The notes: generated from the sequence alone by a model not told the origin. Counted from the first letter of the stretch, positions 7,712 through 64,000 are shown. The stretch: DNA of 64,000 nt from Polyangia bacterium (GCA_035607055.1 DATNDC010000129.1:8999-72998); one strand, 5' to 3'. Made by a program: numbers and translations.

Positions 7712-7745
7712 GCAGCGAGCGCAGCCTGGCTTCGCCAGGCGGAGA
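7712..7745 (+). repeat. Partial copy (hairpin-1 module) of the intergenic repeat family
   Basis: gcagcgagcgcaGCCTGGCttcGCCAGGCgg forms a 7-bp stem with a 3-nt loop. Flanks (gagcgcag..) resemble those at 9116-9146 and 61309-61337. It lies just after the polA stop. Confidence 0.35.
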
Positions 7746-9115: not shown

Positions 9116-9225
9116 GCGTCGAGCGCAGGCCGGCTTCGCTGGCGCCAGGGTCCCGAGGCGGGTCCGCCCGACTGGGGTGGCGTGGAGCTCATCGCGGGAG
9201 GGTTTGGGAACCCTTCCAGGGTTCC
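9116..9225 (+). repeat. Intergenic repeat family, copy A (hairpin-1 module and hairpin-2/3 module split by about 37 nt)
   Basis: 9184-9225 ggagctcatcgcgggagggtttgggaacccttccagggttcc matches 61335-61376 with 2 mismatches. 9116-9146 resembles the hairpin-1 module. Confidence 0.7.
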
Positions 9226-9242
9226 TGCTTTAAATTAGACGC

Positions 9243-17968: not shown

Positions 17969-18919
17969 ATGACCCTCTGCCTGGTCACGGGTGGGGCGGG
18001 GTTCATCGGCTCGTCGCTCTGCCGCGCGCTCGTCGGGCGCGGCGACCGCGTGCGCGTCATCGACAACTTCTCGTCGGGCAAGCGCGAGAACCTGGCCGAC
18101 CTCTTGGATCGGGCCGACCCGATCGAGCTCATCGAGGGCGACATCCTCGACGATCGGGCGCTCGGCAAGGCGATCGAGGGGGTCGAGCTGGTGTTTCACC
18201 TGGCGGCCATTCCGTCGGTGCCGAAGTCGATGGCCGAGCCGATCGAGAACCACGCCGCCAACGCCACCGGCACGCTGCGCGTCCTCGAGCGCGGGCGGCG
18301 GGCGGGGATCCGGCGCCTGGTCTACTCCGCCTCGTCGGCCGCCTACGGCGACGATCCCGCGCTCCCCAAGGTCGAAACGATGCCGCCGGCGCCCATCTCG
18401 CCGTACGGCGGGTCGAAGCTGGCCGGCGAGCAGTACGCGCAGATCTACGCGCGCGGCTACGGCCTGGAGACGGTCTGCCTCCGCTACTTCAACGTGTTCG
18501 GACCGCGCCAGGATCCGGCCTCCGAGTACGCGGCGGTGATCCCCAAGTTCATCACCGCGGCGCTGGCGGGGAAGCAGCCGCGCATCTTCGGCGACGGCTC
18601 GCAGTCGCGCGACTTCTGCTACATCGACAACGTCGTCGAGGCGAACTTCAAGGCGGCGGCCGCCGCCGCCAGCGCCGTCTCGGGCGGCATGTTCAACATC
18701 GCCTGCGGCCAGGCGACGGATCTGAACCGCGTGGTGGCGCTGATCGGCGACCACCTGGGCAAGAAGCTGGCGGCGATCTACGAGGACGAGCGGGCGGGGG
18801 ACATCAAGCACTCCTGGGCCGACATCTCGGCCGCGCGCGCGCGCCTCGGCTACACGGCGGCCGTGTCGTTCGCCGAAGGGCTGGGACGGACGATCGACTG
18901 GTATAAGTCGAAGGGGTGA
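17969..18919 (+). CDS. NAD-dependent epimerase/dehydratase (UDP-sugar 4-epimerase family)
   Basis: Rossmann motif VTGGAGFIGSSL. Catalytic YGGSKLAGE (YxxxK). Extended-SDR length of 316 aa. Confidence 0.9.
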   Translation: MTLCLVTGGAGFIGSSLCRALVGRGDRVRVIDNFSSGKRENLADLLDRADPIELIEGDILDDRALGKAIEGVELVFHLAAIPSVPKSMAEPIENHAANATGTLRVLERGRRAGIRRLVYSASSAAYGDDPALPKVETMPPAPISPYGGSKLAGEQYAQIYARGYGLETVCLRYFNVFGPRQDPASEYAAVIPKFITAALAGKQPRIFGDGSQSRDFCYIDNVVEANFKAAAAAASAVSGGMFNIACGQATDLNRVVALIGDHLGKKLAAIYEDERAGDIKHSWADISAARARLGYTAAVSFAEGLGRTIDWYKSKG

Positions 18920-19854
18920 GCCTGCTTTCGATGACCGGGTTCGGGCGCGGGTCGGCGGACGCCGGCGAGCGCCGCCTGCGCGTGGAGATCCGCTCGGTGA
19001 ACCACCGGGGCCTCGACCTCAAGATCCGCAGCAGCGAGCCCGACGCCTACTGCGACGCCGAGATCGCGCGCGCCGTGCGGGCGGCCGTCGAGCGCGGCGC
19101 CATCACGGTGCAGATCCGCGACGAGTCGGCGGCGGGCTCGGCGGGGCTCGACGAGGCGCGCGTCAAAGCCCTGCACGAGGTATTGGAGCGGCTGCGGCAG
19201 GAGCTGGAGATCGAAGAGCCGGTGACGCTGGCCACGGTGGGCGCCTTCTGGGAGGCGAGCTCCAGCGCCGGCCTCTCGGGCGAGGCGCTCTGGGAGGCGC
19301 TGCGTCCGGCGGTGGCGGCGGCGCTCGAGGAGCTGGGGGCGATGCGGGCCCGCGAAGGGGCGGCGCTGGCGGCCGACCTGGGGGCGCGGCGGGCGCGTCT
19401 GGTCGAGCTCGCCGCCAGCTTGCGGGCGCGGGCGGCGGTGCTCCCCGCGCGGTTCGCCCAGCGCCTCCAGGAACGCTTGGCCAGCCAGGTCGGGATCGCG
19501 TGGACGGAGCTCGGCTCCACCGAGCGGAGTCCCGCGCGGGAGGGGGCGGGAACCCTCCCAGGGGTCCCGCGGTTGATCGACCCGGCGCGGCTGGCGCAAG
19601 AGGTGGCTCTGATGGCCGAGCGACTCGATGTCGCCGAAGAGCTGGTCCGGCTGGAGACGCACCTCGGACACCTGGCGGAGATCTTGAAGGCCGGTGGCGC
19701 GGTCGGCCGCAAGCTCGACTTCGTCATCCAGGAGGTCGGCCGCGAGCTCAACACCATCGCCTCCAAGGCCCAGGACGCCGAGATGGCGGCGCTGGTGATC
19801 GACGCCAAAGCCGAGCTCGAGAAGCTGCGCGAGCAGGCGCAGAACGTCGAGTGA
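18916..19854 (+). CDS. yicC: YicC family stress-induced protein / endoribonuclease
   Basis: N-terminal SMTGFGRG and C-terminal KLDFVIQEVGRELNTIASKA. GTG start overlaps the upstream stop (GTGA). Confidence 0.85.
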   Translation: MSLLSMTGFGRGSADAGERRLRVEIRSVNHRGLDLKIRSSEPDAYCDAEIARAVRAAVERGAITVQIRDESAAGSAGLDEARVKALHEVLERLRQELEIEEPVTLATVGAFWEASSSAGLSGEALWEALRPAVAAALEELGAMRAREGAALAADLGARRARLVELAASLRARAAVLPARFAQRLQERLASQVGIAWTELGSTERSPAREGAGTLPGVPRLIDPARLAQEVALMAERLDVAEELVRLETHLGHLAEILKAGGAVGRKLDFVIQEVGRELNTIASKAQDAEMAALVIDAKAELEKLREQAQNVE

Positions 19855-25068: not shown

Positions 25069-25680
25069 TCAGAGCAGGCGGTCGACCGCACCGGCGACGG
25101 CGGCCGCGACCCCCGCGATTGACCCGCTGGCGTCGAGGATGAGGGCGCGCGGGTCGGCGGCGCAGAGCTCGCGGTAGCGGGCGGCGACGCGCGCCTGGAC
25201 CTCGTCGGCGTCGTAGCGCTCGTCGGGGCGGCCGGCGGCGCGCCGGCGGGCGGCGGCGACGGCGACGGGAACGTCGAGGAGCAGGGTGAGGTCGGGCTGG
25301 CGCAGCTCGCGCGCGAGGCCGGCGACCCAGGCGCGATCGGCCTCCTGCGCCTGATAGGCGAGCGACGACATCAGGTAGCGGTCCGAGACGACGTCGGCCC
25401 CGGCGCCGAGCGCGGGATCGATCTCGCGCGTCAGGTGATCGCGTCGATCCGCGGCGAACAGCAGCGCCATGGCCGGACCATCGGCGGGCCGGCCGTCGGG
25501 CAGCTTGTGTCCGCCGAGCAGGATCTCCCGCAGCAGCCGGCCGACGGGGCCCTGGCTCGGCTCGCGGGTGGTGTGCACGCGCCGCCCGCGCCCCTCGAGG
25601 TGGCGCTCGAGCAGCGGGAGCTGAGTGGTGGTGCCCGAGCCGTCGATCCCTTCGAGCACGATGAACAGGGGAGGGGTCAT
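25069..25680 (-). CDS. tmk: Thymidylate kinase
   Basis: Start set at ATG 25680, giving MTPPLFIVLEGIDGSGTTTQ (P-loop). The upstream part of the track ORF runs through the repeat element. Confidence 0.9.
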   Translation of the reverse strand: MTPPLFIVLEGIDGSGTTTQLPLLERHLEGRGRRVHTTREPSQGPVGRLLREILLGGHKLPDGRPADGPAMALLFAADRRDHLTREIDPALGAGADVVSDRYLMSSLAYQAQEADRAWVAGLARELRQPDLTLLLDVPVAVAAARRRAAGRPDERYDADEVQARVAARYRELCAADPRALILDASGSIAGVAAAVAGAVDRLL

Positions 25681-25753
25681 GTCGCCCTTGAGTAAAACGC
25701 CTCTCCGATCTACACGACAGAGCGCGGTGGCGAGAAGACGAATCCTCCTTTTC

Positions 25754-25825
25754 GGGAACCCTGGGAGGGTTCCCGAACCCTCCCGCGACGAGCTCCGGCG
25801 AGCCAAGCTCGCCTTCGCTCACGCG
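25754..25825 (-). repeat. Intergenic repeat family, copy B (72 nt, inverted orientation)
   Basis: The reverse complement cgcgtgagcgaaggcgagcttggctcgccggagctcgtcgcgggagggttcgggaaccctcccagggttccc matches 61305-61376 with 3 mismatches. None of them disrupts a stem: one is 5' of hairpin 1, one is in the hairpin-1 loop and one is in the hairpin-2 loop. Confidence 0.85.
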
Positions 25826-25831
25826 TCGCTC

Positions 25832-27271
25832 TTGGTGGCGCTCGCGGCGGCGCTGGTGGCGCCTGCGGAGGGCTGCCGCCGTTCGCGCGGCCGTTCGGCG
25901 GCCCCCAACACCTCGTCGTCGTTCATCGACGCGCGCGACGTTCGCTGCGTCGAGCGACCGGAGGGGTGCGTCTGGTGCGAAGGCCGCGGGCCGACGCCGC
26001 CGCTCGTCGAGCCCGACGCCGTCCCGCCCTCGCTCTGCGATCCCAAGGATCCGGGAAACTGCGTCGACTTCTGTTCGCACCTGGCCCCCGAGTGCGCCGT
26101 CCCCTGGCGGACGGTGCCGAGCTGCCTGCTTCCGACGGAGCAGGAGTTCCGCCGCGAGGTCTTCCGGCGCGACACCGCCGACCGCCCGGAGGCGATCGTG
26201 CAAGGGCGCGTCACCGACGAGTCGGGGCGGCGGATCGAAGGGGCCAAGGTGCGGGTCTGGTTCCAGGGGACTGACATCCTGGACGACACCTCGGGCAAGG
26301 ACGGCAGCTATCATCTCCGGCTGCGCGCCGGCCCCTGGAGCTACACCTTGCGCGTGAGCCACGCCGGCCTGGCCACCGAGATCGCCGACCTGAAAATCGA
26401 CCGCGCGGGGAACACGCTGCGGAACTTCCGCCTCGCGCCCGAGTCGACCATCCGCGGGCGCGTCACCAGCAGCACCGGCGACCCGATCGGCGGCGTCGCC
26501 ATCCACGCCGTGCGCAGCCCCGACGACCTGGTCGACGCCGGCGAGGCGCAGAGCGCGGACGACGGCACGTACGTCATCGCGGGGCTGGACGTCAAACGTT
26601 ACTTCCTGCGCGCCTCGAAGTTCGGGTGGCTGCCGCAGATGCTCAAGTGGGGCGTGATGGCGCCGGCGACGCGGGTGGGGTTCAAGATGGTCCGCGCCGG
26701 CGTCATCGAGGGACGCGTGCTGGACGCCGACGGCGAAGGGCAGGCCAACGCGACCGTGGTGGCGCTCCCCTCGGCCAGCGGCGGCAACGCCGCCTCACCG
26801 ATCATCTGGGCGGTCGACAGCGAGGGGAAGTTCGCCCAGGATCGCTTCGAGCCGGGGACCTATTACCTCTGGGCGCGGCGCGGGGAGATGCTGGTCTTCC
26901 CGCCCGAGAAGATCGAGATCAGCGACACCAACCTCGACGCGCAGATCGAGCTCAAGCTGACGCAGAAGGGGGCGCGCGTGCGCGGGCGCATCGTCACCCG
27001 CGGCGGCTCGACCCTCGATCCGGACACGCGCGCGGTCCTGTTCGGACAGTCGCCGCTGGCGCTGCCGCGCAAGGCCGTCGGCGAGGTCGACCACGACGGG
27101 GCATTCACCGTGGGGGCGCTCTTGCCGGGACGCTACGAGATCTCGGTCCGGGTCGGCGCGCGGACGCTCCCCATCATCAGCGGCCCGCGCGAGGTGGAGA
27201 TCCCGATCGAACCAGGCGCCACGGTCGATCTGCCGGACACGATCGTCGTTCGCCCGCAGGCGGAGGAGTAG
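25832..27271 (+). CDS. Secreted protein with repeated carboxypeptidase-regulatory-like (CarboxypepD_reg) domains
   Basis: Four repeats of the (I/V)xGRVxDxxGxPIxGAxV type (VQGRVTDESGRRIEGAKVRV, IRGRVTSSTGDPIGGVAIHA, IEGRVLDADGEGQANATVVA, VRGRIVTRGGSTL). The start is uncertain: in-frame TTG 25832 or GTG 25835 precedes LVALAAALVAPAEGC. Track start 25625 would read through tmk and the repeat. Confidence 0.7.
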   Translation: MVALAAALVAPAEGCRRSRGRSAAPNTSSSFIDARDVRCVERPEGCVWCEGRGPTPPLVEPDAVPPSLCDPKDPGNCVDFCSHLAPECAVPWRTVPSCLLPTEQEFRREVFRRDTADRPEAIVQGRVTDESGRRIEGAKVRVWFQGTDILDDTSGKDGSYHLRLRAGPWSYTLRVSHAGLATEIADLKIDRAGNTLRNFRLAPESTIRGRVTSSTGDPIGGVAIHAVRSPDDLVDAGEAQSADDGTYVIAGLDVKRYFLRASKFGWLPQMLKWGVMAPATRVGFKMVRAGVIEGRVLDADGEGQANATVVALPSASGGNAASPIIWAVDSEGKFAQDRFEPGTYYLWARRGEMLVFPPEKIEISDTNLDAQIELKLTQKGARVRGRIVTRGGSTLDPDTRAVLFGQSPLALPRKAVGEVDHDGAFTVGALLPGRYEISVRVGARTLPIISGPREVEIPIEPGATVDLPDTIVVRPQAEE

Positions 27272-59367: not shown

Positions 59368-61227
59368 TCAGCTCATTGTAATGCCGGCGGGCGCCTGGGG
59401 ATCCCCACCGACCTTCGGAATTTTCGCCTCGGCGGCCAGCTGCCGCGCGAAGTCGTCCAGCGGCATGGCGGGCAGCTGCTTCCCCTCGCGGGTGCGTGGA
59501 GAAACCACATGAGCCGCCATGTCCTTTTCGCCGACCACGACCTGGTAGGGGATCTTCTCGAGCGTGGCCCGTCGAATTTTCGCGCCCAGCTTGTCCGCGG
59601 CCAGGTCGGCCTCGACCCGGGCGCCCTCGGCCTGGAGCCGGGCCACCACCTCCCGAGCGTAGGCCTCGGCCTTCTCGCTCACCGTGAGGACCCGGGCCTG
59701 GACCGGCGCCAGCCACAAGGGGAACGCCCCTGCGTAGTGCTCGATGAGCACGGCGATGAAACGCTCGATGGAGCCGAACAGCGCCCGGTGGATCATGACC
59801 GGACGCTGGCGTGAGCCATCGTGCGCCACATACTCGAGCTGAAAGCGCTGGGGCAGCTGGAGATCGAGCTGGAAGGTCCCGCACTGCCACTCCCGCCCGA
59901 GGGCGTCGCGGATCTTGAGGTCGATCTTCGGTCCGTAGAACGCCCCGCCCCCCTCATCCACCTCGAACGGCCGGCCGGTCGCCTCCAGCGACTGGCGAAT
60001 CGCCGTCTCGGCCATGTCCCACAGCGCCGGCTCGCCCATGAAGCTCTCCGGGCGGGTTGAAAGGAAAAGCTTGATGTCCCCGAAGCCGAACAGGTCGAGG
60101 ATGTCGAGCGCGAAGCGCACGCAGCCGCCCATCTCGTCCGGGATCTGGTCCTCGCGAAGGAACAGGTGGCCGTCGTCCTGGGTGAACCCGCGCACGCGCA
60201 AGAGCCCGTGCAGCACCCCGGAGCGCTCGTAGCGGTAGACCGTGCCGAGCTCCGAGTAGCGAATCGGCAGGTCGCGGTAAGAGCGCATCTGCGACCGGTA
60301 GATCGCGATGTGCATCGGGCAGTTCATCGGCTTGACGAGGTAGCGCTGGCCTTCCAGCTCCATCCCGCCGAACAGGTTCTCGTTGTAGTGCGCGAGGTGG
60401 CCCGAGGTCTCGAGCAGCTTCTCCCGCGCGATGTGCGGGCTATAGACCGGCTGGTAGCCGCGCCGGAGCACCTCGCGCCGGATCAGGTCCTCCAGGATCT
60501 GGCGGACCATCGCCCCCTTGGGGTGCCAGAGCGCGACCCCGGGGCCGACCAGCTCGTCGAACGAGAACAGGTCGAGCTCGCGCCCCAGCGTCCGGTGGTC
60601 GCGCTTCTTCGCCTCCTCGATCCGGTGCAGGAACTCGTCGAGCTCGGCCTGCGAGCCGAACGCCGTCCCGTAGACGCGCTGGAGCTGCGGGTTTCGCTCG
60701 TCGCCACGCCAGTAAGCGCCGGCGAACGAGAGCACCTTGAACGCCTTGATGTCACCCGTCCGCTCGACGTGCGGCCCGCGGCAGAGGTCGATGAAGTCGC
60801 CGTGCTGGAAGTACGAGACCTCTTCCCCCTCCGGGATCGATTCGATGATCTCGACCTTGTACTTCTCGCCGCGCGAGCGGAAGCGCTCCAGCGCTTCGGC
60901 GCGCGAGACGACGTTTCGCTCGAACGGCGCGTTCTCGGCGATGATCTTCTTCATCTCCGCTTCGATCCGCGCCGCGTCCTCGGGCGCGAACGGCTCGGTG
61001 TCGAAGTCGTAGTAGAACCCCGTCTCGATCGACGGCCCGATCGCCACCTTGGCGTTCGGACGCAGCCGCCGCACGGCGTCCGCCATCACGTGCGATGCCG
61101 AGTGCCGCATCCTCGACAAGGGATCGTCCGGAACGTCCCCCTTGTCGCGCGGGCGCACGACCTTCTTCTCCCTTTCAGCGCTCACGCGGAAAGCATAGCC
61201 GCAGGCACCCCGCCCGTTCCCAACCAA
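59368..61227 (-). CDS. thrS: Threonine--tRNA ligase (no N-terminal TGS domain)
   Basis: Editing-domain HSASHVMA lies only ~30-45 aa from any possible start. Class II core (RGFTQDDGHLF, FYGPKID) and anticodon-binding domain are present. Start candidates are TTG 61227, GTG 61185 and GTG 61158; the last follows GGGAG by 9 nt. Confidence 0.95.
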   Translation of the reverse strand: MVGNGRGACGYAFRVSAEREKKVVRPRDKGDVPDDPLSRMRHSASHVMADAVRRLRPNAKVAIGPSIETGFYYDFDTEPFAPEDAARIEAEMKKIIAENAPFERNVVSRAEALERFRSRGEKYKVEIIESIPEGEEVSYFQHGDFIDLCRGPHVERTGDIKAFKVLSFAGAYWRGDERNPQLQRVYGTAFGSQAELDEFLHRIEEAKKRDHRTLGRELDLFSFDELVGPGVALWHPKGAMVRQILEDLIRREVLRRGYQPVYSPHIAREKLLETSGHLAHYNENLFGGMELEGQRYLVKPMNCPMHIAIYRSQMRSYRDLPIRYSELGTVYRYERSGVLHGLLRVRGFTQDDGHLFLREDQIPDEMGGCVRFALDILDLFGFGDIKLFLSTRPESFMGEPALWDMAETAIRQSLEATGRPFEVDEGGGAFYGPKIDLKIRDALGREWQCGTFQLDLQLPQRFQLEYVAHDGSRQRPVMIHRALFGSIERFIAVLIEHYAGAFPLWLAPVQARVLTVSEKAEAYAREVVARLQAEGARVEADLAADKLGAKIRRATLEKIPYQVVVGEKDMAAHVVSPRTREGKQLPAMPLDDFARQLAAEAKIPKVGGDPQAPAGITMS

Positions 61228-61288: not shown

Positions 61289-61421
61289 GAGGGTTCCCAT
61301 CGATCGCGTGAGCGGAGGCGAGCTTTGCTCGCCGGAGCTCGTCGCGGGAGGGTTTGGGAACCCTCCCAGGGTTCCCATCTGTCCGGGAGGGTTTGGGAAC
61401 CCTCCCAGGGTTCCCATCTGT
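61289..61421 (+). repeat. Intergenic repeat family, copy C: full 72-nt unit (61305-61376) plus a 39-nt tandem duplication of its 3' module
   Basis: The unit is cgcgtgagcggaGGCGAGCtttGCTCGCCggagctcgtcgcGGGAGGGTTtGGGAACCCTCCCAGGGTTCCC. The module gggagggtttgggaaccctcccagggttcccatctgt occurs at 61346-61382 and again at 61385-61421. An extra agggttcccatc lies at 61289-61300. Confidence 0.9.
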
Positions 61422-61423
61422 AC

Positions 61424-61498
<75 letters not shown>

Positions 61499-61616
61499 GG
61501 GATGTTCTTGTTCCGAGTCCGACGATTTCGATTCGGCGTACGTTACGGCTCCCGCGCGCACTGTCAAGCGAAAGAAGCCGGCGGTTCTCCGTGAGTTGGG
61601 CCCCGCGCGCGCGATC

Positions 61617-63506
61617 CTAGCCGCTTCTCTGGCGGCGGCGGTCGCGGGTCAGGATCACGGTGAGCGCGAGGAGGGTCGCGGCGAAGAGCAGCAGGCCGGC
61701 GATGAGGCCGGGCGGGCGGTAGGAGAGCTCGACGGTCTCGTCGCCTCCTCGCAGTGGGACGGCGACCAGACCCCGCCAGCTCTCGGCCGAGGTCGCGCCG
61801 GCATGCCAGCCGGGACCGGCGTTCATGTCGTAGACGAGGCGATCGCCCGAGGCGGCGCCCGTCACGCGGACGGTGATCGCGTTCGGTGTCCAGCGCGTCA
61901 CCTCCGCGCGCCCGGCGCCGCTCGCCAGGAAAACCAGCCCCTTGTACTGGGGTTGATCGCTGCCGACGACGGGGCTGTGCGTGGCCTCCGGCGGGATGCC
62001 GTAGCAGGTCACCATCCCCGTGTTGGCGCGCATCGACGGGTAGATGATCTTGGACGGCCACTCGTACCGATCGCGCAGCGCGGGACCGACCGCCGGCTTG
62101 CCGTAGACGTAGTGCTGGGACTTCTCCTGATGGAACTCGGCGCTGCGGGTGACGGGCGGGACCTCGAGGTGGAACGGCGCCACCGTCGCCTGGCGCGACA
62201 CGACGGCCAGATCGATCCCGTAGAGGGTGACCACCGCCAACCCGAGCACCTCGGCCCAGCGGCGCCGGCGGGCGAACCGCGCCCAGGGCTCGTCCGCGGC
62301 CGCGGCCAGCACCAGCGCCAGGAGCAGGACGGCCAGAAAGAGGAGCCGCGCCGGCAGGTGCTGCGAGCTGAACAGCGGCAGCCGGTGGACCAGCGACCAG
62401 ATCGACTGGCCGAGCGAGAGGATCACGCAGCAGATCGCCGCCACCTTGAGCGACACGAGGCGCGGCGTCCAGCCGACCGCCAGCGCCGCGATCAGCGCCA
62501 GCGCGCCGGCGACGCCGACGTAGGCCCCCCACTCCCACCAGACCCAGAAGACCCGCAGCGGCAGGTGCGGGTAGAAGTCGAACCCCTGCTGGTGCGCGGT
62601 CAGCATGATCCAGACCGAGCGCAGCGACACCGGCTCGTTCGATTCGATGATCCGCGGATAGCGCGACATGGTCGACAGCGCGGGCAGCAGCTTGGGCGCC
62701 GCCAGGCCGATGCCGGTGAACATCGACAGCAGAAAGAGCGCCAGCGGCCGCCGGTTGCGCGCGGCGATGGCCCGCCCGAGCGCGTAGAGCCAGAGCACCA
62801 TCAGCGTGTGCGGGTACGGGTAGATGCCGCCCACGTAGATGATGAGCGCCAGCATCGCCCCGGCCGCCGCCGCCAGGTCGCGGCGATCTTCTTCCACCCC
62901 TCGGTCGAGGAAGTAGATGGCGAACGGCGTCCAGGCGTAGGCGAGGTGCCACATGTGTCCGGAGGCGATCTGCAGCGCCCAGCGGCTGCAGAGGATCCAG
63001 GTCGCGGCGACGAACGCGCGCCAGGCCGGGCTGCGGGTGAACCGCCCCGCCAAGAGGTAAGCGCCCAGGACGCCGGCGAAGGTGGCCGCCACCGCCTCGA
63101 GGCGCAGCGCCAACGGGAACGGAGCCAAGAGGTAGAACGGCAGCCAGGGCGAGACGAAGTTGGTCGCCCCCTCGACGTAACCCCAGGCAGGGAAGCCGCC
63201 GCAATACCAGGGGTTCCACCAGGGGGCCTGGCCGTGGCGCAGCGCCAGCACCGTCACGTAGCGGTAGGCGGCCTGTGAGTCCCAGTCCTGAAAGCCCATC
63301 GCCCGGACGTCGGCGAAGAAGGGCGCGAACACCCAGAGCGCGAGCAGCAGGACCGGGATGACGCCGGTCCAGGCGATCAGGCGGTCGCGCGGGCGAGGCG
63401 GTTCGAGCACGGGGCGACTTTCGTATGGCTGGGCGATGCGGGCAAGCGGCGAACGTAGACTTGCTCGCCCCGGTGGACGCTGGCAAGATTTCGCCGCTTT
63501 GATCAT
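61617..63506 (-). CDS. Polytopic membrane protein (about 12 or more TM helices plus C-terminal soluble domain), GT-C-like architecture
   Basis: Many hydrophobic helices (VIPVLLLALWVFAPFF, LLAPFPLALRLEAVAATFAGVLGAYLLA, etc.), a C-terminal ~200-aa soluble region and a final TM. Start is ATG 63506 or GTG 63410. Function is not recognisable from motifs. Confidence 0.6.
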   Translation of the reverse strand: MIKAAKSCQRPPGRASLRSPLARIAQPYESRPVLEPPRPRDRLIAWTGVIPVLLLALWVFAPFFADVRAMGFQDWDSQAAYRYVTVLALRHGQAPWWNPWYCGGFPAWGYVEGATNFVSPWLPFYLLAPFPLALRLEAVAATFAGVLGAYLLAGRFTRSPAWRAFVAATWILCSRWALQIASGHMWHLAYAWTPFAIYFLDRGVEEDRRDLAAAAGAMLALIIYVGGIYPYPHTLMVLWLYALGRAIAARNRRPLALFLLSMFTGIGLAAPKLLPALSTMSRYPRIIESNEPVSLRSVWIMLTAHQQGFDFYPHLPLRVFWVWWEWGAYVGVAGALALIAALAVGWTPRLVSLKVAAICCVILSLGQSIWSLVHRLPLFSSQHLPARLLFLAVLLLALVLAAAADEPWARFARRRRWAEVLGLAVVTLYGIDLAVVSRQATVAPFHLEVPPVTRSAEFHQEKSQHYVYGKPAVGPALRDRYEWPSKIIYPSMRANTGMVTCYGIPPEATHSPVVGSDQPQYKGLVFLASGAGRAEVTRWTPNAITVRVTGAASGDRLVYDMNAGPGWHAGATSAESWRGLVAVPLRGGDETVELSYRPPGLIAGLLLFAATLLALTVILTRDRRRQRSG

Positions 63507-63615
63507 GGGCCGCGGCGCGCACCGACCGGCAGGCGCGGCTGGGAGCGCCTGGCGGCAGGCCCTCGCCAACTGGCGCAAGAACTGGCGCAAGAACTGGCGA
63601 GAGTCCGGCGCGACC

Positions 63616-64000
63616 ATGACCTGGGACGAGCGCGTGGGCGTCGCGTTGGGGTTGCTGGCGGTGTCGATCGCGTTCGCCGTCTCCGCCTGCGGCATCGGGG
63701 GCCCCTTCCCCGACGGGCACTACGCCTCGACGTCGGTGATCGGGACGGCGGCCTACAACAGCTACCGCTGGAACACGCTGTTGCCGATCGAGACCTACCT
63801 CGACCACGCGCCGAACGCGTCGCTCTACTACATGCACCACCCGCTGGGGATGTTCTGGGTCGTCGACGTCCTGGGGAAGGTGTTCGGGCTCCACGACTGG
63901 GTGCTGCGCCTGCCGCCGCTCTTCTATGTCACGGTGACGACGGCGCTCCTCTACAAGCTCGGGCGCGCGCTCTGGGGGGCGCTTCCGGGCGGGCTCTGCG
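63616..64000 (+). CDS. ArnT/PMT-like (GT39/GT83-type) membrane glycosyltransferase, N-terminal fragment (runs off window)
   Basis: The frame is open to the window end and absent from the track because it has no stop. MTWDERVGVALGLLAVSIAFAV ... YYMHHPLGMFWVVDVLGKVFGLHDWVLRLPPLFYVTVTTALLYKLGRALWG matches the HPPL..G.....RLPS.L......L.Y.L pattern of GT-C enzymes. An alternative in-frame ATG lies at 63505. Confidence 0.55.
   Translation, partial: MTWDERVGVALGLLAVSIAFAVSACGIGGPFPDGHYASTSVIGTAAYNSYRWNTLLPIETYLDHAPNASLYYMHHPLGMFWVVDVLGKVFGLHDWVLRLPPLFYVTVTTALLYKLGRALWGALPGGLC

Follow-up and report, generated by a model that had tools for sequence, protein, structure and literature searches.

A two-hairpin repeat dispersed in uncultured Polyangia, probably a selfish palindromic DNA element, and its array between tRNA-Val and thrS

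In a 64-kb stretch of DNA from a Polyangia bacterium (hereafter the window), a short hairpin-rich repeat is partly duplicated in tandem between a tRNA-Val gene and thrS. The question raised by this locus is whether the repeat is a structured RNA which acts on its neighbors or a DNA element which multiplies on its own account. The window is contig C275 of G000, a Polyangia metagenome-assembled genome (MAG) of 5.28 Mb in 280 contigs, with 70.9% G+C and a completeness of 89.6%. A preliminary description of the sequence had named both readings, that is, a REP/MITE-like element or a structured RNA motif (terminator, processing signal, or switch). The locus can be regarded with good confidence as a 1.5-unit array of a non-autonomous, selfish palindromic DNA element, similar to REP elements and to the Rickettsia palindromic elements (RPEs). 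It is a new sequence family of an already known kind of element and not a new RNA switch.

The array begins with a fragment of an upstream unit, that is, a partial 3′ arm with its tail (AGGGTTCCCATC; 61290–61301, +), which abuts the full unit (61299–61383, +). The latter is one member of a dispersed family, accompanied here by a partial tandem duplication. In detail, the pentamer GATCG (61302–61306, +), which represents the 5′ end of the element or its target, stands before most copies in an alignment of 97 copies, with a conservation of at least 70–90%. The composite hairpin 1 (61305–61346, +) consists, in the minimum free energy (MFE) fold, of an outer CGCG/CGCG tier, a middle GAGC/GCTC tier, a GGA/GGA internal loop, and an inner GGCGAGC-TTT-GCTCGCC. 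It is followed by a G-rich unpaired spacer (61347–61354, +), located within alignment columns of the nearly invariant sequence TCGCGGGRGG, and by hairpin 3, TGGGAACCCT-CCC-AGGGTTCCCA (61355–61377, +), recognized by its pairing and by two-sided changes across copies. The unit ends with a variable 3′ tail, TCTGTC (61378–61383, +), which travels with the element as judged from comparisons of filled and empty sites. Spacer, hairpin 3, and tail are then repeated in tandem (61384–61421, +; 30.6 bits with the covariance model, CM), with the hairpin of the duplicate at 61394–61416. The duplication has a period of 39 nt (61344–61382 and 61383–61421, with tail CATCTGT) and is exact except for the first bases.

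The array stops 2 nt short of the 3′ CCA end of tRNA-Val(GAC) (61424–61498, −; ARAGORN, and Rfam tRNA at 67.9 bits). Downstream of the tRNA gene is thrS, encoding threonyl-tRNA synthetase (59368–61227, −; Pfam tRNA_SAD, tRNA-synt_2b, and HGTP_anticodon), and from the minus-strand position of this gene it follows that the array is bordered by the tRNA-Val 3′ end on one side and by the thrS start on the other, antisense to both genes. The arrangement of a duplicated 3′ module next to the CCA end and thrS, which had been noticed at the outset, is thus borne out by the sequence, ARAGORN, and Pfam.

Two further observations concern the surrounding genes. The thrS product is without a TGS domain by Pfam at this site and at the orthologous loci (L126–L143), and its short N-terminus is older than the insertion of the element. 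Upstream of tRNA-Val, a 775-aa ORF (61564–63894, −) has no Pfam match and overlaps an ORF of the plus strand (63358 to the end).

At the orthologous site, 16 genomes of the same genus are without the element and show a spacer of ~35 nt. This short distance from tRNA-Val to the thrS start suggests that the two genes are co-transcribed in the element-free relatives. The filled sites carry one unit in G018, G017, and G023, two in G004, and at least five in G021; the 1.5-unit form is the same in G000 and G020, and the initial fragment is common to the relatives G018 and G004. The element seems to have entered the ~35-nt spacer in the ancestor of a subclade and to have varied in copy number since, a course which these counts document in part.

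The repeat is found again within the window. A second full copy is inverted (25747–25831, −; CM 91.3 bits), and its segment 25754–25825 differs from 61305–61376 by 3 mismatches in BLAST (95.8% identity over 72 nt, E = 3e-28), in full agreement with the 72-nt unit of the preliminary description. This copy is located beside an ORF (25625–27271, +) which encodes repeated CarboxypepD_reg domains; the longest version of this ORF includes the element in its first ~200 nt, so that translation probably starts beyond the element. The third full copy (19491–19575, +; CM 72.6 bits) is placed in frame in yicC (18916–19854, +). It had escaped the preliminary description.

A rearranged, “split” copy (9116–9233, +; CM 43.9 bits) is composed of a 5′ module (9116–9143), ~40 nt of other repeat-like DNA, and a 3′ module (9184–9233). 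Positions 9184–9225 correspond to the 3′ 42 nt of the unit with 95% identity, and the 5′ module matches the “GTCGAGC” subfamily at 26 of 28 positions. The latter match shows that the split copy, originally placed at 9116–9225, is real, with an interruption of ~40 nt. A module with hairpin 1 alone, proposed for 7712–7745, is plausibly a relic: 24 of 29 positions are identical at 7715–7743 (+) and the stem changes are compensated, but the match is not significant (CM 18 bits, E = 0.11). As a whole, the window contains four occurrences of a 35-nt core pattern of the repeat, where 100 shuffles predict 0.00.

Within G000, iterated nhmmer searches recovered 136 copies (~125 loci after collapsing) and a CM built from 97 full-length copies gave 133 matches; these copy numbers are lower bounds, because the MAG is fragmented and repeats break contigs. 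The dispersal first seen in the window therefore extends to the whole genome, in mixed orientation relative to genes. With the CM, the element was detected in all 24 other genomes of the genus that were searched, with from 29 to at least 110 matches each. In a class-wide sample, 44 of 301 Polyangia genomes, belonging to 14 of 136 genera, contain it. The genera which bear it belong mostly to the window's own family and to three other families, and several genera of the own family are without it. When one genome per prokaryote species was scanned for the exact pattern, the matches listed (80 of 115 stretches) were uncultured MAGs only; among these same matches the labels are Polyangia, Myxococcales, delta proteobacterium, and Proteobacteria, and the sources soil, fen, and permafrost. 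In Rfam, searched at gathering thresholds and with E up to 10, the tRNA alone passes, and the next best match scores 22.6 bits against a threshold of 80 bits. In the literature searched, no description of an element of such kind in Myxococcota was found.

The unit, of ~80 nt, is composed of (GATCG)-CGTG, the three-tier hairpin 1, the spacer TCGCGGGRGG, a hairpin 3 of 9–12 bp, and a variable tail of 5–13 nt. Whichever strand is folded, and whether as RNA or as DNA, the MFE structure of the unit is this pair of hairpins (z of about −4.6 to −5.3). The alignment of 97 copies has a mean column identity of 68% and a mean pairwise identity of 71%. Standard pairs are formed by 86.8% of the stem cells, compared with 35–45% when the 3′ partner is slid by 1–3 columns, and 330 cells are changed on both sides as opposed to 122 ± 10 in shuffles, with none of the 500 shuffles reaching the observed value. 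Outside the stems, conservation is highest in the 5′ (GAT)CGCGTG and in the spacer TCGCGGGRGG.

Hairpins 1 and 3 both show compensation. In hairpin 1, 12 of 18 pairs are changed on both sides across copies, and the compensated types are GGCGAGC/GCTCGCC, GCCGGGC/GCCCGGC, and GCTGGGC/GCCCAGC for the inner stem and GAGC/GCTC, GGGC/GCCC, and GGAC/GTCC for the middle tier. The stem of the 3′ hairpin (GGGAACCCT-CCC-AGGGTTCCC) is maintained by Watson–Crick compensation, with 94.7% of its cells paired and both-side changes in 5 of 10 pairs. These changes include A-T to G-C replacements and a closing pair that appears as U-A, C-G, or G-C; for instance, the type GGGAACCC/GGGTTCCC alternates with GGGGACCC/GGGTCCCC, with a covarying closing pair. 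Since the copies are paralogous, part of the covariation signal may stem from a few master subfamilies and not from ongoing selection. In the 97-copy alignment of G000, the hairpin-1 and hairpin-3 types are also found in mosaic combinations, which indicates recombination between copies.

The middle segment of the unit had been described as able to pair either to the left (hairpin 2, GGGAGGGTT/AACCCTCCC) or to the right (hairpin 3, GGGAACCCT/AGGGTTCCC). Both hairpins can indeed be drawn in the window copy, but it is hairpin 3 alone that is conserved by the family. Hairpin 2 has 5 two-sided cells compared with 5.4 in shuffles, and its pairing of 79.1% equals the shuffled value (78.5% with the partner slid by one column).

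Mismatches in the stems are G·T in 37 cases and A·C in 30. The near equality of G·T and A·C, together with the presence of copies in both orientations and the Watson–Crick nature of the compensation, makes the constraint look like one at the level of DNA, and there is no sign of selection on one transcribed strand alone. The constrained feature would then be the pair of hairpins, acting on DNA or on either strand equally.

Other properties of the sequence were considered as family features. Open reading frames are not “designed” into the element: 64–91 of the 97 copies are open per frame, compared with 70% in shuffled sequence, so there is nothing special in its coding openness. A G-quadruplex was rejected too, as four G3 tracts in the 3′ half are found in just 46 of the 97 copies. 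Past the element, the positions +9 to +15 nt are AT-rich and contain stop-like triplets in every frame of both strands, a pattern which is read as the result of nearness to gene ends and of the tail and not as a coding signal. A promoter and terminator scan gave 0 terminator-like sites and no U-tract.

Comparisons of orthologous loci indicate that the element has inserted at new sites, since these are empty in some genomes and filled in others, three of them being filled in a minority of relatives. Three of 25 genomes carry the carB insert, and the alleles without it form a clean alignment across the site. The insert of yicC is present in 2 of 26 genomes of the genus (G000 and G017). Conversely, out of 134 element loci from other MAGs, 61 could be placed on G000 by their flanks, and many of them are filled there and empty in G000. 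The inserted segments measure mostly 69–90 nt, including 5–13 nt past hairpin 3.

The junctions carry a recurrent pentamer. At the yicC site, one GATCG is found in the empty alleles and GATCG flanks both sides of the insert in the filled allele. Several empty sites already have, at the junction, a GATCG-like pentamer (GAGCG, GACCG, or GATCA) or a stretch which resembles the first 8–11 nt of the element. GATCG also occurs 4–10 nt past hairpin 3 in 22 of 132 copies, about six-fold over expectation, and approximately one third of these cases are the next unit of an array. A target-site duplication is clear at yicC alone, is suggested for these 22 copies, and is absent from most pairs of filled and empty sites. 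Such junctions may have arisen by insertion on the 3′ side of a GATCG-like target or by a 5-bp duplication, or they may be footprints of deletion.

Arrays are arranged head-to-tail, with periods of 75–87 nt and units that are identical or nearly so, an indication that they grow by local duplication. Locus L053 has four units and L061 has three. The largest, L080, has six identical units of 78 nt (26 codons each), located in frame in the ORF of a DEAD/DEAH-type helicase (L080:1539–1985; MAG MFD02416.bin.1.176, CAWAKD010000002.1), between its GSGKS and DEFH motifs. The C-terminal part of this ORF looks frameshifted, which may point to a pseudogene or to an error of assembly. Taken together, the family has colonized one lineage of uncultured Polyangia (Myxococcota) and has multiplied there by insertion at new sites; local head-to-tail duplication is the second route, producing arrays of near-identical units like the one next to tRNA-Val.

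Insertions into genes were confirmed by translation and Pfam in 12 cases, and ~10% of the loci are genic. In CarB, the insert lies between the residues equivalent to 552 and 554 of Escherichia coli, at the junction of the oligomerization domain and the second synthetase half. In the E2 acyltransferase of a 2-oxoacid dehydrogenase, it is placed in the linker preceding the catalytic domain, in DnaE2 and DnaE in or beside the HhH domain, in a histidine kinase inside HATPase_c, and in Lhr between the WH and DEAD_assoc domains. RecD2 has it inside the OB fold, HflX ahead of the N domain, and a radical-SAM protein in the C-terminal region; a multihaem cytochrome and an ABC-F ATPase also contain Pfam-verified in-frame inserts. 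The yicC copy of the window (19491–19575) adds ~24 residues (AWTELGSTERSPAREGAGTLPGVP) to the YicC-like endoribonuclease, between YicC-like_N (4–152) and YicC-like_C (221–312) by Pfam.

Genic copies are read in various frames of the element, and both of its strands are used. The recurring peptide of the six-frame track, first taken for a pseudo-peptide, is more than an artifact, given the real in-frame insertions. The Lhr ORF (2154 aa; C195:5857–7850, equivalent to L149:157–2150) has a further peculiarity: its first ~570 residues, ahead of the helicase domains, correspond to PF10712 “NAD-GH” (E = 6e-174) and may result from a genuine fusion or from extension of the ORF on a high-G+C strand.

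The enzyme which would mobilize the element was searched for in the same genomes. PF01797 (Y1/RAYT/TnpA) has 0 matches in G000; in the genus it matches 11 of 26 genomes, one of them strongly, and it is absent from the other 15, including element-rich, near-complete long-read assemblies. None of the Y1 genes present in the genus is flanked by element copies. Transposases of the IS91 type (Y2) were considered as mobilizers and rejected: they are common in the bacterial family, including element-free genera, and several element-rich genomes have none. The one in G000 (400-aa frame, E = 7e-56; C139:21642–22178, at the contig end) has no end sequence in common with the element and no similarity to the repeat. 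A longer parent element bounded by the 5′ and 3′ modules was not found in G000. Terminal inverted repeats are also absent, the 5′ end GATCGCGTG not being complementary to hairpin 3 and the variable tail. The orientation of the element shows no bias relative to local GC skew (counts of 25/25/25/21), which leaves replication-coupled single-strand transposition without support by a proxy that is weak on short contigs.

It is conceivable, albeit rather unlikely, that the family moves by a mechanism so far undescribed among small bacterial repeats. This idea draws on the absence of RAYT/TnpA, of terminal inverted repeats, and of a regular target duplication, and on the combination of a hairpin pair conserved by Watson–Crick changes, the TCGCGGGRGG spacer, GATCG-like target pentamers, and 3′ tails which travel with the element. 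Such features could mark an HUH-like or other structure-specific enzyme, encoded elsewhere or lost, or a DNA structural signal domesticated by the host. If this mechanism were true, the in-frame colonization of the essential genes carB, dnaE, and hflX in a free-living bacterium would represent a general and overlooked route of protein-linker evolution.

The genomic context of the copies in G000 was examined with rough, GC3-based gene calls, except for the genes checked by Pfam. Intergenic copies are flanked by convergent genes in 36 cases, by tandem genes in 45 (27 sense and 18 antisense), and by divergent genes in 10. Most copies thus lie at gene 3′ ends, and divergent gene pairs are underrepresented. 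Approximately 24 copies are within the last codons of ORFs and 18 inside long ORFs with coding signal on both sides. Five loci are at most 50 nt from one of the 49 tRNA genes, namely those for Val, Ser (twice), and Met, and the Thr-Tyr spacer. In detail, copies are located 9–11 nt upstream of two tRNA-Ser genes and a tRNA-Met gene, and in the tRNA-Thr/tRNA-Tyr spacer (C16:22590–22858, C192:5957–6012, and C238:495–547).

This distribution is what a cis-acting functional RNA might show, that is, a factor-independent terminator, a 3′ mRNA stabilizer, or a tRNA/mRNA processing signal, spread by its benefit to the host. Enrichment at gene 3′ ends and between convergent genes, depletion between divergent ones, and several copies ~10 nt from tRNA genes all agree with such a role, and the hairpins are very stable on either strand; REP elements, moreover, stabilize upstream mRNA. 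The explanation is nevertheless improbable, because in co-directional intergenic regions the element is found in both orientations (27 vs 18), without a U-tract or terminator-like site, and G·T equals A·C in the stems. In addition, ~10% of the loci fall within genes, where several frames and both strands occur, the orthologous sites of close relatives manage without the element, and Rfam gives no match. For the same reasons, and with hairpin 2 unsupported, the structured RNA motif of the preliminary description is not upheld. A role in termination, stabilization, or processing may exist as a side effect of the selfish element, but is unlikely to be the reason for its existence.

Among known systems, the closest parallel in behavior to the selfish element proposed here is that of the RPEs, which are dispersed palindromes without a transposase, located between genes and in frame in unrelated housekeeping genes (Ogata et al. 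2000; reviewed in PMC10969869). Similarly, the Polyangia family is a short palindromic dispersed repeat without its own transposase, found in a single lineage, with intergenic copies and in-frame copies which add a peptide in linkers or loops. It differs in its host, as the Polyangia are free-living soil bacteria with 71% G+C and Rickettsia are AT-rich and obligate intracellular, in the length of the unit (~80 nt vs ~100–150 nt), in its head-to-tail arrays, and in the genic share, which is ~10% of the loci compared with a far larger share for RPE-1. The likeness is one of behavior, and sequence homology is unlikely judging from taxon and base composition.

The IS200/IS605-derived PATEs also have two different subterminal hairpins, no terminal inverted repeats, and mostly no target duplication, and the conserved GATCG-like pentamer just 5′ of the element resembles their insertion 3′ of a fixed target. 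On the other hand, TnpA (Y1) is not consistently present with the Polyangia family, there is no full-length IS with the same ends, and there is no strand bias by GC skew. Miniature elements (MITEs) such as Correia/NEMIS, ERIC, and RUP (PMC10969869, PMC3184786) are likewise small, non-autonomous, structured, and polymorphic in insertion, with possible fusion to ORFs. They are distinguished from the present family, which has no regular target-site duplication and no matching autonomous IS, and which cannot be counted as a MITE because terminal inverted repeats are lacking.

REP/RAYT elements are hairpin repeats conserved in structure and devoid of terminal inverted repeats (PMC2817692). The Polyangia family resembles REP, BIME, and REPIN elements in its more than 100 copies, in its GC-rich hairpins maintained by compensatory change, and in its mainly extragenic, clustered placement at gene 3′ ends and in convergent-gene gaps, so that a canonical REP/REPIN family mobilized by a RAYT (Y1 HUH transposase) had to be weighed, all the more as both lack terminal inverted repeats. 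It is, however, highly improbable. PF01797 is missing from the own genome and sparse in the genus, and its single strong match is not flanked by the element; G001, G017, and G020, which are 73–89% complete, point to many copies without Y1. Furthermore, each unit has two different hairpins and no conserved GTAG-type head, in-frame genic copies are frequent, and the clusters are direct, head-to-tail repeats of a two-hairpin unit rather than alternating inverted REPs or inverted doublets. The missing RAYT and the direct arrays thus place the family outside REP/RAYT. Of the original label “REP/MITE-like”, there remain a dispersed, hairpin-forming, non-coding, presence/absence-polymorphic repeat; membership of either class does not.

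The least credible explanation is a conformational RNA switch, in which AACCCT would pair with the left (hairpin 2) or the right (hairpin 3) and regulate a neighboring gene: both 9-bp helices can be drawn in the window copy and one module in the fold of the 135-nt array takes the left-hand pairing, but hairpin 2 shows no covariation above shuffles, which brings the switch close to refutation, its pairing degenerates in the GGGGGG subfamilies, and neither gene association nor orientation is consistent.

For the selfish palindromic element, a mode of life analogous to these systems can be proposed. A folded single strand or a cruciform would be recognized by a putative trans-acting enzyme, as in REP/RAYT and IS200/IS605. 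Copies would persist where the harm is small, that is, past stop codons (especially of convergent genes) and in tRNA spacers, and, within genes, in linkers or surface loops that tolerate an in-frame insert, as with the RPEs. Any effect on the 3′ processing of tRNA-Val or on the expression of thrS would be a by-product.

The finding reveals no new regulatory RNA, and the missing transposase is turned into a concrete question. In annotation, the family gives rise to spurious or extended ORFs and odd peptides, and in Polyangia MAGs it can be used to type strains and to recognize assembly breaks. Its inserts show where CarB, DnaE, HflX, YicC, and other proteins tolerate an insertion. In conclusion, RPE-like behavior, with a selfish hairpin repeat placed in frame in housekeeping genes, extends beyond Rickettsiales to a free-living, high-G+C soil lineage known from metagenomes alone.
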